Assembly (NCBI GenBank): GCA_002292025.1
Contig: DBBC01000108.1
Span: forward strand, 1-34,617
DNA length: 34,617 bases
Source of the DNA: Firmicutes bacterium UBA994
Lineage (GTDB): Bacteria; Bacillota; UBA994
Reading direction: 5' to 3'
Notes under the pieces: model-generated
The model's input: the letters and a program-made list of their open reading frames with translations, nothing else
Databases searched by the model: none
Told to the model about the DNA's origin: nothing
In this document: in pieces, positions 7,006 through 23,869 of the stretch
How positions within the stretch are numbered: the first letter of the stretch is position 1
How the letters are laid out: every line of letters starts with the position of its first letter
Translations under genes and position numbers: made by a program

Positions 7006-8412
7006 CTAGCTTTGCCGGCGCAGGCAGAACTCACGCGCCAGCGAAACAGCTTGCTCGCGGCTCGTCAAGTTACCCCTAGCCGCCTGTTCACTGAGATAGT
7101 CAATGGTTTCGCCTATCCACCGGCCTCTGGGCAGCTTCAGTTCCTCCATCAGCTCGGGAGCCGTAATGGGGAGCCTAGGATGAATCACTTCGAGTTTCCT
7201 AAACACCCAAGCATCAAGGAATCTCTCCACAGTGCCTACAATTTTTTCATAGTCCCCTGCATGTTGGTGTTGCTCCCCTTTCCCGCGAAAGTCCGCGACC
7301 GCAAACAGCGCCAGCGGAACGCTCTGCTCACCGCAGCGCCGTGCTATGCGGTGCAAGTGACCATTATGGAGGCGCGGCTGCCGCGCTAACTGGGTGAGAT
7401 ACATGTGCCATCGCACAAAGCGTGTCAACGCTTTGGTTTCGGCTTGCGACAACTTAAGCCGCCCTGCTAAGGACCCTGCCATCGCTTGCCCAATCTGTTC
7501 ATGGCGATAAAAAGTGACTTTGCCGTCCTCGCGCAACGCTTGAGTCGGCGGTTTTCCTATATCATGCAAAAGTGCGGCCAGTTTACAGACGGCCTGCAGG
7601 TGAAAGTCAATCTCCGCAAGCTCCGCCTGTATACGGCGCGCGAGCTCTGCGGAAAGGAAGTCCGGGGAGTGCCAAACTTGCACATAGAAGCGAAACACCC
7701 GCCGGGAGTGCTCGTACACGCAGTAGCTGTGGTGTCGGTTCTGTATGACACCTTTGGCGCGGGTAAGTTCCGGCAGCACTGCATCCCATACACCTGCATC
7801 GTCTAGCCAATCAAGGACTGCGGGTGCAGAGAGTTGGTTTAGGATGCGCGCAAATTCAGCCCAGATTCGTTCCCCTGGGCATCCTTTGAGCAAGAAACTA
7901 GCCCGCGCGGCCTGCTGTGAGAGAGAAACCGTCGGACGAAACCCATTCTCCGCCATCAGGCGCGCGGCACGCAAGATACGCACGGCATCGTTGTGCAGAG
8001 CATGGTCATGTGTAGGGGATAACAGCTTATTTATGAGATGTTCTCTGCCGCCGAAGGGGTCATGGATTTTATCCAGTCGCCCGTGCAAGTAGTCGTCAAG
8101 GGAAAGGGCCATAGAGTTTACCGTAAAATCGCGTTGCGCGAGATTTTCCGCTAAATCGCTCGCTAACGGTGATACGTCGCAAGTGGCATTGCTAAGAACG
8201 AACCTATACATTTCTCGCTCTGCGCTGAGAGGAAAGGGCGAGCGTCTAAAGACCTGTGCGATTCTAGCCAATGCATCTTGGAAACAATGCGCAGGCAGTA
8301 ACAGGTCGATGTCTAGGTTTGGCTGTTCACGTCCTAGGAGAAGATCGCGCACTGCCCCACCAACAACTATCACGTCGGCCAAACGGCTTATCTGCCGCAG
8401 CTGTTCGAACAC
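7006..8412 (-). CDS. cca: CCA-adding tRNA nucleotidyltransferase / poly(A) polymerase family protein with HD domain
   Basis: N-terminal VVGGAVRDLLLG...DIDLL nucleotidyltransferase head and a central HD motif LLHDIGKP. GTG start. Confidence 0.75.
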   Translation of the reverse strand: MFEQLRQISRLADVIVVGGAVRDLLLGREQPNLDIDLLLPAHCFQDALARIAQVFRRSPFPLSAEREMYRFVLSNATCDVSPLASDLAENLAQRDFTVNSMALSLDDYLHGRLDKIHDPFGGREHLINKLLSPTHDHALHNDAVRILRAARLMAENGFRPTVSLSQQAARASFLLKGCPGERIWAEFARILNQLSAPAVLDWLDDAGVWDAVLPELTRAKGVIQNRHHSYCVYEHSRRVFRFYVQVWHSPDFLSAELARRIQAELAEIDFHLQAVCKLAALLHDIGKPPTQALREDGKVTFYRHEQIGQAMAGSLAGRLKLSQAETKALTRFVRWHMYLTQLARQPRLHNGHLHRIARRCGEQSVPLALFAVADFRGKGEQHQHAGDYEKIVGTVERFLDAWVFRKLEVIHPRLPITAPELMEELKLPRGRWIGETIDYLSEQAARGNLTSREQAVSLAREFCLRRQS

Positions 8413-8597
8413 TGCTCTCCCTCCATTCTGCGTCTAAAAGTAACTACTCAGCCCTATTCACGGCAGGGAAGAAAACAAAGAGTACCTATTTGTATGCCGG
8501 GGTGCCTGAGTAGAGTGCCTGGGTAGTTCCGTCTAAAGAAACTATAACATAGGCAGTCTCAAAGGTAGAGGGGTCAAGGGGAGGGCAGGACCACGTA

Positions 8598-8626
8598 TTG
8601 ACCCCCCGAAGCGAAAAAAGTATACT
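8598..8626 (+). promoter_or_regulatory. sigma-A promoter of the riboswitch-btu operon (-35 TTGACC, 17 nt, -10 TATACT)
   Basis: TTGACC at 8598-8603 and TATACT at 8621-8626 with an exact 17-nt spacer, immediately 5' of the riboswitch. Confidence 0.7.
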
Positions 8627-8639
8627 TAATGTGTCAATC

Positions 8640-8812
8640 AAATACGCTGTGGGGTGCCCCTAGGCTTTAGGGGTTAAAAGGGAATCAGGTGTAAATCCTG
8701 AGCGGTCCCGCCACTGTAACGGGTAGTGCCTGCATTAACCACTGTTCGCGCGGCGAATGGGAAGGAGCTAGGCGCGTCACTCCCGTAGTCAGGAAACCTG
8801 CCCCAGAGACAA
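8640..8812 (+). promoter_or_regulatory. cobalamin (AdoCbl/B12) riboswitch aptamer
   Basis: Conserved core AAGGGAATCAGGTGTAAATCCTGAGCGGTCCCGCCACTGTAACGGG (8668-8715) and B12 box AGTCAGGAAACCTGCC (8787-8802). Sits upstream of a BtuF/C/D-type transporter. Confidence 0.88.
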
Positions 8813-8871
8813 GACGCCGTCCTTCGGTCGAAAGGACTAGGTCAAAGCTTTGTACTTAGCTTTGCATCAAA

Positions 8872-22784: not shown

Positions 22785-23459
22785 TCAAATGCTGCGAAAA
22801 ATAAGGTATAGCCCTACCCCAACAAACAATAGCCCGGCGACATATGCGCCAAAGTCCCAGTACCTGCTGAAGCCGCGCCAAGCTCGCAGCGCCCCTACCG
22901 CACCGCCCATAAGCAGCAAAGGCAGCCCCTGCCCTAAGCCAAAAGCAAACAACAGCAGTCCCCCTGCGTAAACTTGCCTAGAGGTCGCCGCGACACTGAC
23001 TATAATGCCAAGCACCGGACTCACGCAGGGCGAGGCCGCCAGCCCAAATGCCAGCCCCACCAAAAAGGCCCCAAGGAAACCGTGTGCTCGCACGGGCATC
23101 TTAGTTATGCTCTTAAAGGGCAGTTGTACCAACTGCATTAAGCTAAGTCCCATCAGCAGCAACACTGCCCCGAGCAGCATGGGGGCTACACTAGAAGTGA
23201 TGCCGATTATGCCGCCTAGAAGTGCCGCCGCCAGCCCCAGCGCAGTAAACGCTGTAGAAAGCCCAAGTACTAGGCTCAGCACTAGCAGTAAGCTGCGCCG
23301 CGTTTTAATGCCGCCACTGACGCCCACATACCCTAAAACTATAGGCATCATGGCGATAATGCAAGGGGATAGACTGGTCAGCACACCGGCGCCAAATGAA
23401 GCCAGCACTGCGAGGCCAAGGTTTCCGACCAGTATGCTCTGTAGCGTTTCCATCGTCAT
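22785..23459 (-). CDS. ccdA: cytochrome c biogenesis / thiol-disulfide electron transporter CcdA (DsbD-core family)
   Basis: 224 aa, 6 TM. The two conserved membrane Cys motifs LSPCIIAMMP and ASPCVSPVLG. The ATG overlaps the upstream stop (ATGA). Confidence 0.85.
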   Translation of the reverse strand: MTMETLQSILVGNLGLAVLASFGAGVLTSLSPCIIAMMPIVLGYVGVSGGIKTRRSLLLVLSLVLGLSTAFTALGLAAALLGGIIGITSSVAPMLLGAVLLLMGLSLMQLVQLPFKSITKMPVRAHGFLGAFLVGLAFGLAASPCVSPVLGIIVSVAATSRQVYAGGLLLFAFGLGQGLPLLLMGGAVGALRAWRGFSRYWDFGAYVAGLLFVGVGLYLIFRSI

Positions 23460-23869
23460 CGTGGATTTATCCCCGCAGCAATAAACCGCCGCAGTTCCTC
23501 CTTAGACATGGCCCCCACCTCATGCCGCTCACGCCCATTGGCAGTGACCACAACAAAATGGGGGATAGACCGAAGATTAAAGCGACGCCCAAGTTCTGTG
23601 GCTTGGTCTGACTTAATGTCCGCGACAATAAAGGTGACTTGTGTGCCGAACTCGGCCTTAAGCTCCCGCACCGCGGGATATATTACTACGCAGGAGCGTC
23701 ACGTATCGGAGGTGAACATGACAAAGACCGGGCTCTGCTGTGCCCGAGCTTGCTCAAAAGCTGTGAGCGGCGCGAGAGACTTAAGGTCATCTCCACCGCT
23801 CGGTCTGGCAAGGACCCAAGCCACAACACCCACGAGCAAGATTAGTAGTAGAGATACGCTACGCTTCAT
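23456..23869 (-). CDS. signal-anchored thioredoxin-fold protein with in-frame TGA (23699-23701) at the first active-site position (U-R-S-C); predicted selenoprotein (alternative: nonsense pseudogene)
   Basis: ATG 23869 has GGAGG 8 nt upstream. Translation: MKRSVSLLLILLVGVVAWVLA...SPVFVMFTSDT-TGA-RSCVVIYPAVRELKAEFGTQVTFIVADIKSD...IPHFVVV. This is one frame, 138 codons. The track shows only the C-terminal 71 aa. Confidence 0.65.
23662..23698 (-). promoter_or_regulatory. candidate bacterial SECIS hairpin immediately 3' of the UGA
   Basis: mRNA GCUCCUGC (23697-23690) can pair with GCGGGAGC (23669-23662): 8 bp, 1 G-U. A mutually exclusive apical hairpin CCCGC-GGU-GCGGG lies at 23677-23665, with a GGU loop ~27-29 nt after the UGA. 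Confidence 0.45.

Follow-up and report, generated by a model that had tools for sequence, protein, structure and literature searches.

A conserved GGU hairpin downstream of an in-frame UGA as the probable selenocysteine insertion element of a thioredoxin-fold gene in Firmicutes bacterium UBA994

The contig DBBC01000108.1 of Firmicutes bacterium UBA994 (GenBank assembly GCA_002292025.1), with a length of 34,617 nucleotides and referred to here as the window, carries on its minus strand a gene for a thioredoxin-like protein that is interrupted by an in-frame UGA. The question raised by this locus is whether the RNA immediately downstream directs the decoding of this codon as selenocysteine (Sec, U) and, if so, through which structure. 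A sequence-only reading had pointed to a stem-loop directly after the UGA that could act as a Sec insertion sequence (SECIS), had described two mutually exclusive folds for it, and had considered such a structure at this exact position an unlikely coincidence for a random nonsense mutation. From the comparison of 44 homologous segments with TGA and 8 with Cys, we consider it highly probable that the 15-nt hairpin UCCCGC-GGU-GCGGGA is the bacterial SECIS (bSECIS) of a thioredoxin-fold selenoprotein gene. The features in question are given below; nucleotides and alignment columns are numbered with the U of the UGA as nt 1.

23456–23869, minus strand: predicted thioredoxin-fold selenoprotein gene, 137 aa with the TGA read as U.
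23699–23701, minus strand: in-frame UGA, corresponding to U57, the first residue of the T-U-R-S-C redox motif in the alignment of homologues.
23664–23678, minus strand: probable bSECIS apical hairpin UCCCGC-GGU-GCGGGA (fold 2), with the 5′ arm at 23678–23673, the GGU loop at 23672–23670 and the 3′ arm at 23669–23664.
23662–23697, minus strand: competing long stem (fold 1), with the 5′ arm GCUCCUGCG at 23697–23689 and the 3′ arm UGCGGGAGC at 23670–23662.

The gene starts with an ATG at 23869, with GGAGG 8 nt upstream, and the minus-strand mRNA around the UGA reads ...ACC UCC GAU ACG UGA CGC UCC UGC GUA GUA AUA UAU CCC GCG GUG CGG GAG CUU AAG... The 137-aa product scored above the Pfam gathering cut-offs for PF00085 (E 6.6e-12; 45.8 bits against 23.5) and PF13098 (37.6 bits against 27), and thioredoxins are its closest solved structures. 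Its translation includes a hydrophobic anchor at the N-terminus, and the product is predicted to be membrane-anchored with the thioredoxin domain outside the cell. The column of U57 corresponds to the first Cys of CxxC in the Cys-containing homologues (Cys-forms) and in ordinary thioredoxins, and the columns U/C57, C60 and P103 are invariant; Sec thus takes the place of the first of the two CxxC cysteines, and both the resolving Cys and the cis-Pro are present, as in a UxxC thioredoxin fold. On these features we assign the gene to a known selenoprotein class, the Sec-form thioredoxins, of which it would be an unannotated member. Its true stop is a second UGA at 23458–23456, which overlaps the start of ccdA (AUGA). 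The same gene is thus read with one UGA as Sec and one as stop, 81 codons apart, and no comparable SECIS-like hairpin was found after the terminal UGA, where the best structure reached −3.2 kcal/mol.

Relatives of the gene were found by six-frame searches. It is present in all 10 genomes of the order, and six of the nine order relatives (the four congeners and those of two other genera) have a TGA at the same codon; the three genomes of one genus have Cys instead, as GCSSC or GCRAC. Across the phylum, 57 of 401 genomes presented a homologue at E <= 1e-8, most of them with exactly one TGA; scanning genome and metagenome contigs with the single protein contributed only seven close loci, several of which were identical to known ones. 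Protein-level conservation was observed on both flanks of the TGA, with 27–74% identity across the homologues and 47–74% among the nine Sec orthologues of the order. The set used for comparison comprised 44 distinct Sec-form and 8 Cys-form segments, each covering 51 nt from the U/C codon, and these align without gaps. Close relatives come from public metagenome-assembled genomes named 'candidate division NPL-UPA2', 'Bacillota bacterium' and 'Peptococcaceae', with serpentinising springs as their source habitat; the NPL-UPA2 of such springs is, according to PMC9751293, a putative acetogen that uses formate.

This distribution bears on the explanation that the TGA is a real stop, within a pseudogene or between two small open reading frames (ORFs), and that the hairpin arose by coincidence or serves as a terminator or attenuator. 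Gene callers do return fragments of 56 aa and 71–74 aa under the name 'hypothetical protein', and the terminal stop of the gene is likewise UGA. However, the TGA falls exactly at the catalytic Cys column in 44 homologues, with conserved flanks, neither fragment alone contains the active site, the Sec machinery of the genome is complete, and no T run follows the hairpin. A genuine stop at this position is, in our judgement, extremely improbable.

Both folds, as well as the UGA at 23701–23699, were recovered with the positions and sequence that the sequence-only reading had assigned to them. Fold 1 pairs GCUCCUGC (23697–23690) with GCGGGAGC (23669–23662), that is, nt 5–12 with nt 33–40, and grows to 9 bp in RNAfold through a G13·U32 pair (23689/23670). 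Fold 2 has the core CCCGC-GGU-GCGGG at 23677–23665 (C25–C29 with G33–G37), to which the pair U24–A38 (U23678–A23664) adds a sixth base pair; the resulting 15-nt hairpin covers the codons Y64(U)-P65-A66-V67-R68-E69, and its base and loop are separated from the UGA by 20 and 26 nt (positions 4–29 for the loop), respectively. The two folds are mutually exclusive because they share the 3′ arm.

The evidence that carries the assignment of fold 2 comes from the alignment. The segment AUCCCGCGGUGCGGGA is kept exactly in 9/9 distinct Sec-forms of the order, and the 5′ arm of the long stem varies among the same nine sequences (GCGCCUGYG, CCGCCUGUG). All 44 Sec-forms present a hairpin in the same register, columns 21–29 with 33–41 and the loop at +30 to +32. 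Two architectures occur in the wider family: GGAGCCNGU-GGU-RCNGGCUCU, with 9 bp and a GGU triloop, and GGAGCC-CGUGAUUAU-GGCUCU, with 6 bp and a 9-nt loop. Across both architectures, G30 and U32 are invariant in all 44 sequences. In the clade of the window, three basal pairs were lost and the upper stem was strengthened instead. The hairpin columns pair in 79.5% of cells, against 33–54% when the 3′ partner is slid by 1–3 columns, and both-sided changes occur in five of the nine pairs. The pairs of columns 24/38, for example, are GC in 32 sequences and UA in 9, and those of columns 27/35 include CG, GU, AU, GC and UA, where column 27 is the wobble base of the Pro codon and its partner is the middle base of codon 12. 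The covariation score of 0.230, compared with 0.118 for shuffles, was reached by 0/500 shuffles, so that the covariation among orthologues for which the sequence-only reading had asked to look is present in the hairpin.

The constraint on these columns can be separated from that on the protein. In the nine closest Sec orthologues, the encoded amino acid is invariant at 20 four-fold codons, 16 of which vary in the third base; the four third bases that never vary belong to P65 (CCC), A66 (GCG), V67 (GUG) and R68 (CGG), exactly the consecutive codons of the hairpin. By arithmetic, the probability of that exact 4-of-20 split is 1/4845, a figure that is not inflated by kinship, since all columns share one phylogeny. 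In the wider family, the residue specified by codon 10 may be A, V, T or E; the wobble position of this codon (G30) is nonetheless occupied by G in 44/44 Sec-forms, but in only 3/8 Cys-forms. These data were set against the view that the hairpin has no role as RNA and is a by-product of amino-acid conservation (Y-P-A-V-R-E/D-L), with the UGA decoded otherwise or not at all. The peptide YPAVR(E/D)L is indeed invariant in the nine Sec orthologues of the order, and the Cys-forms differ in amino acids at the hairpin region too; but protein conservation does not account for four frozen third bases while the other 16 four-fold sites vary, for a wobble position that is always G under a changing residue, or for a Pro wobble (column 27) that covaries with the middle base of codon 12. 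We hold this view to be highly improbable.

The comparison of Sec- and Cys-forms points in the same direction. The eight Cys-forms belong to two clades, kept apart by well-supported branches, and the hairpin is lacking in both; 43% of their hairpin cells pair (n = 8), and the fold energies of nt 18–45 range from 0 to −5.7 kcal/mol in the Cys-forms and from −6.8 to −17.0 kcal/mol in the Sec-forms, with no overlap. The structure is thus conserved in Sec orthologues and dispensable in Cys ones. The sequence-only reading had named as contrary evidence a situation in which Cys-containing orthologues keep the same sequence merely through amino-acid conservation, with no covariation; this was not found among the eight Cys-forms, which are without the hairpin, and the synonymous sites are frozen. 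In addition, tRNA-Sec and SelB persist in the Cys genus of the family to which the window belongs, which indicates that the hairpin tracks the codon and not the Sec competence of the organism.

The window corresponds to contig C62 of its own assembly (1.45 Mb, 90.6% complete), and the genes for Sec insertion are clustered on contig C52 of this assembly. They include tRNA-Sec (72.8 bits, anticodon UCA), SelB with its C-terminal winged helix, and SelD (~7768–8691, minus strand), which has an in-frame TGA of its own (GGGU-ASKLG). The selA gene is split over contig ends (C115:8321–9208 and C52:12878–13141), which suggests that these two contigs are adjacent in the genome. With tRNA-Sec, SelA, SelB and SelD all encoded, the genome is Sec-competent. 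It also encodes the formate dehydrogenase alpha subunit (fdhA, contig C42, minus strand) with the classic ...HCARLUH... motif; beside the thioredoxin gene, fdhA and selD are the clear selenoprotein genes of this genome. The SECIS hairpin of fdhA is GUGGUC-GGUCU-GGCCAC, with a spacing of 18 nt after the UGA, and that of selD is UUAGGGC-CGGGU-GCCCUAA, with a spacing of 16 nt. A GGU in the apical loop is common to the fdhA, selD and thioredoxin hairpins, as would be expected of elements read by one SelB, and it occurs at +22–24 as well as at +30–32 within one genome. As regards genome-wide detection, a selenoprotein scan based on codon-usage scores missed both the thioredoxin gene and selD. A motif-plus-hairpin scan picked out fdhA and returned 62 sites, mostly in obviously non-coding frames, which shows that structural rules alone are unspecific. 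Recoding of TGA as Trp (code 4) was also considered and rejected, because TGA is itself the terminal codon of the gene and the genome has a tRNA-Sec/SelB system.

In the bSECIS model of a 2026 review of prokaryotic selenoproteomes (PMC13188914), the loop has 3–9 nt and the upper stem 4–16 bp; a G stands at loop position 1 or 2, mostly as N1-G-[G/U]-N-N2 with N1 and N2 paired; the spacing between UGA and loop is 16–37 nt; and the minimum free energy (MFE) is <= −7.5 kcal/mol. Fold 2 agrees with this model in every respect: a 3-nt GGU loop stands on a 6-bp stem (U24–A38 to C29–G33), within a family in which stems have 6–9 bp and loops 3 or 9 nt; the loop reads C29-G30-G31-U32-G33, with C29 paired with G33; the spacing is 26 nt; and the hairpin alone has −9.7 kcal/mol, yet 5% of randomly chosen coding positions in the genome also conform to all four of the structural rules. 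The sequence-only reading was also right in placing the GGU loop at 27–29 nt after the UGA and within the usual SECIS range.

A conserved hairpin might still drive read-through of the UGA independently of SelB, with a near-cognate Trp or Cys inserted. Sequence alone is not decisive on this point, and the spacing exceeds that of fdhA and selD by 8 nt. Nevertheless, the GGU loop motif is the same as in the fdhA and selD elements of the genome, the spacing remains within the published range of 16–37 nt (PMC13188914), the UGA aligns with a redox Cys as in a classic Sec/Cys pair, and the hairpin vanishes exactly where Cys is encoded directly. Read-through of this kind appears scarcely credible.

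Several observations weigh against fold 2 as the bSECIS. Folded on its own with RNAfold, this sequence has fold 1 as its MFE structure, not the hairpin; evaluated separately, the long stem has −13.9 and the hairpin −9.7 kcal/mol, and their shares of the ensemble are 63% and 36%, respectively. The 66-nt stretch reached −22.6 kcal/mol with z = −1.0, and 32/200 dinucleotide shuffles folded as well, with the same outcome for a 47-nt stretch. RNAalifold applied to all 44 Sec-forms kept only three core pairs (24–26/36–38), because the family has two hairpin architectures; pairs were therefore counted on the explicit hairpin structure in place of the RNAalifold output. Searches of Rfam gave no SECIS match in the window at the gathering score, and nothing relevant between 23560 and 23780 at E <= 10. 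Between the UGA and the loop there are 8 nt more in the thioredoxin gene than in fdhA and selD. The contrast between Sec- and Cys-forms represents only two independent transitions, so that its Mann-Whitney and Fisher p-values are nominal and overstate the case; the amino acids of the hairpin region also differ between the two forms, and part of the contrast could lie at the protein level.

For a background rate, codon positions within long ORFs of the genome were sampled (n = 8758). Hairpins conforming to bSECIS-like rules came after 5.0% of them, hairpins no less stable than fold 2 after 2.6%, and hairpins of such stability with GGU in the loop after 0.25%; the isolated 23-nt hairpin gave z = −1.96. 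The structure of this one sequence is suggestive, not decisive, and single-sequence folding was rejected as a criterion, being not significant and favouring the stem that is not conserved. The claim of an unlikely coincidence is thus weaker than first stated as far as one sequence is concerned (z −1.0; 5% background); since the single-sequence fold is not significant, that there is more than chance here rests on the comparative data, which are strong for fold 2 only. Folding as proposed in the sequence-only reading favoured its first structure, and the second became the MFE only when the first 12, 15 or 18 nt after the UGA were forced to be single-stranded, the state expected of them in the mRNA channel of a ribosome that has the UGA in its A site. 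With the ribosome presumably covering +4 to +15, the long stem would be unable to form during decoding.

A rival reading makes the long stem of 8–9 bp the functional element, which would then serve as SECIS or else hold back the ribosome at the UGA in the manner of a roadblock. Besides its greater stability and ensemble share in this sequence, a comparable alternative pairing dominates in the Sec-forms L019, L022 and L024. Over the 44 Sec-forms, however, only 59.6% of its cells pair, a level reached by 66/500 shuffles, and its covariation was reached by 106/500; the stem is broken or weak in L020, L021, L050 and L053, with a probability of about zero in the first three, of the same genus, and in 40/44 sequences the hairpin exceeds it in stability. 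In addition, the loop of the long stem has 18 nt, outside the 3–9 nt of bSECIS elements (PMC13188914), and its 5′ arm would lie under the ribosome when the UGA is in the A site. A functional role for this stem is very unlikely. Fold 2 alone is the conserved structure and very probably the functional one, and the long stem is probably a by-product of the coding sequence; of the SECIS-capable stem-loop proposed in the sequence-only reading, the apical GGU hairpin is retained as conserved, while the longer stem does not rise above shuffles.

The mode of action that we propose for the hairpin is of the well-known bacterial kind, modelled on the literature on Escherichia coli fdhF and Moorella SelB, and adds nothing new on mechanism. 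When the UGA at 23701–23699 is in the A site, the ribosome would have melted the mRNA to about +15, including the 5′ arm of the long stem. SelB, carrying GTP and Sec-tRNA(Sec), would bind the apical loop at its exposed G and U via its C-terminal winged-helix domain, and the tethered factor would deliver Sec-tRNA in competition with release factor 2, so that Sec would be inserted at the UGA and U57 would become the attacking residue of the T-U-R-S-C redox centre. The second UGA (23458–23456), which is without such a hairpin, would terminate translation.

An extension of this scheme is a translation-coupled switch, in which the SECIS is masked in the exclusive helix on untranslated mRNA and exposed to SelB once the ribosome melts that helix. 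Here the codons R58–V61 can pair with the SECIS 3′ arm, and another 5′ sequence (UGA CCC GCC UGU; UGA followed by P-A-C codons) likewise pairs with this arm in L022 and L024. The probability of the alternative pairing exceeds 0.3 in only 9/44 Sec-forms and is near zero in L020, L021 and L050, and such pairing is largely a consequence of coding, given the repeated Pro-Ala codons and an invariant Cys codon. We regard the switch as unlikely.

The neighbouring gene gives the context in which the product of the putative selenoprotein gene would act.

22785–23459, minus strand: ccdA (DsbD_TM family; PF02683, E 5.4e-24), encoding a membrane electron carrier.

This gene lies directly downstream of the Sec-thioredoxin gene and overlaps its stop, and from this arrangement it is taken to be the translationally coupled partner of the selenoprotein gene. 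A ccdA homologue was found directly downstream, on the same strand, in 28/32 homologous loci that were long enough to tell. In the locus L024 (G007:C117, ~1561–2565 of the locus), a Sec-thioredoxin (T-U-P-A-C) and a CcdA/DsbD_TM domain are joined in one open frame. Long open frames of 377–421 aa were also observed in G133, G337, G157 and G077, which suggests further thioredoxin-CcdA fusions. The selenoprotein is probably kept reduced by the co-translated CcdA, a redox partnership that would fit the gene order. No homologue of ResB (PF05140) or CcsA/ResC (PF01578) was found in the 90.6%-complete assembly; the CcdA-fed reductase therefore probably serves something other than cytochrome c maturation, a role rated as unlikely for the thioredoxin-CcdA pair.

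In public records, the gene is divided at its UGA. An exact look-up retrieved the gene of the window as an N-terminal piece of 56 aa and a C-terminal piece of 71 aa, and the Sec-form orthologues are on record as C-terminal fragments of 73–74 aa (MBT9133818.1, MBT9155412.1, MBT9175741.1 and MBT9154788.1) under the name 'hypothetical protein [candidate division NPL-UPA2 bacterium]'; for the Cys-form, the recorded name is 'thioredoxin family protein'. A homologue search of the protein database gave no match at E <= 1e-10, which is consistent with Sec-forms split by gene callers, and the split was confirmed by the exact look-up. Under the reading proposed here, two 'hypothetical protein' fragments would become a single functional gene, whose product would be an exported selenoenzyme coupled to CcdA. 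The records concerned are those of NPL-UPA2 and related Bacillota genomes that originate from hyperalkaline serpentinising springs, and the same correction would apply to dozens of genomes of the phylum. The 44 Sec-forms and 8 Cys-forms also represent a clean natural experiment on SECIS evolution, in which the clade of the window rebuilt the stem from different codons, and the set may be used for training bacterial selenoprotein finders and for probing the spacing tolerance of SelB. The value of the finding is modest and lies in annotation and in this SECIS-evolution data set.

Two further RNA features were observed apart from this locus. The only match to Rfam at the gathering score was a cobalamin riboswitch at 8635–8819 of the window (plus strand; 106.5 bits, E 6e-26). 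A perfect 29-nt hairpin, GAAGCAAAAGGGACGGAGCCUUUUGCUUC, is present on at least three contigs of the assembly (C15, C103 and, as the reverse complement, C51), and this recurring element may be a repeated terminator or a repetitive extragenic palindromic (REP)-like element.

Compared with known systems, the hairpin resembles the bSECIS of the E. coli fdhF/fdnG type (Zhang and Gladyshev consensus, as set out in PMC13188914) in being a stem-loop in the coding sequence just 3′ of the Sec-UGA, with a small loop that begins with G followed by G/U, a GC-rich upper stem of 6 bp, and a genome-encoded SelB with a winged helix. It differs from the prototype in its minimal GGU triloop (or C-GGU-G pentaloop), with no bulged U and no lower stem. 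The positions that we take to be equivalent to G23 and U24 of E. coli are at +30 and +32 here, so that their distance from the UGA exceeds that in E. coli by about 8 nt.

At the protein level, the UxxC families listed in the review of prokaryotic selenoproteomes include a Sec-thioredoxin (PF00085, Treponema denticola type) and a 'thiol:disulfide interchange protein' (PF13098) (PMC13188914). The predicted product shares with both the thioredoxin fold, Sec as the first residue of UxxC, the existence of Cys homologues and scores above the Pfam cut-offs; it is set apart from them, by description, in being membrane-anchored, outward-facing and genetically coupled to ccdA. Among the curated selenoprotein models of NCBIfam, such as NF045694 (TsoB) and NF041199 (Trx7/PDZ), none was matched above its cut-off; the best scores were 17.5 and 15.2 bits, against cut-offs of 805 and 300, and membership in these families was rejected.

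A further parallel is offered by the CcdA-ResA and CcdA-StoA pairs of Bacillus subtilis, in which a membrane-anchored, extracytoplasmic thioredoxin-like protein is likewise encoded with CcdA or close to it. In contrast to these pairs, no ResB/ResC genes were found in the 90.6%-complete genome, and the substrate is probably not apocytochrome c. The B. subtilis proteins are Cys-based reductases with a CxxC motif, whereas the attacking residue of the thioredoxin described here is predicted to be Sec.

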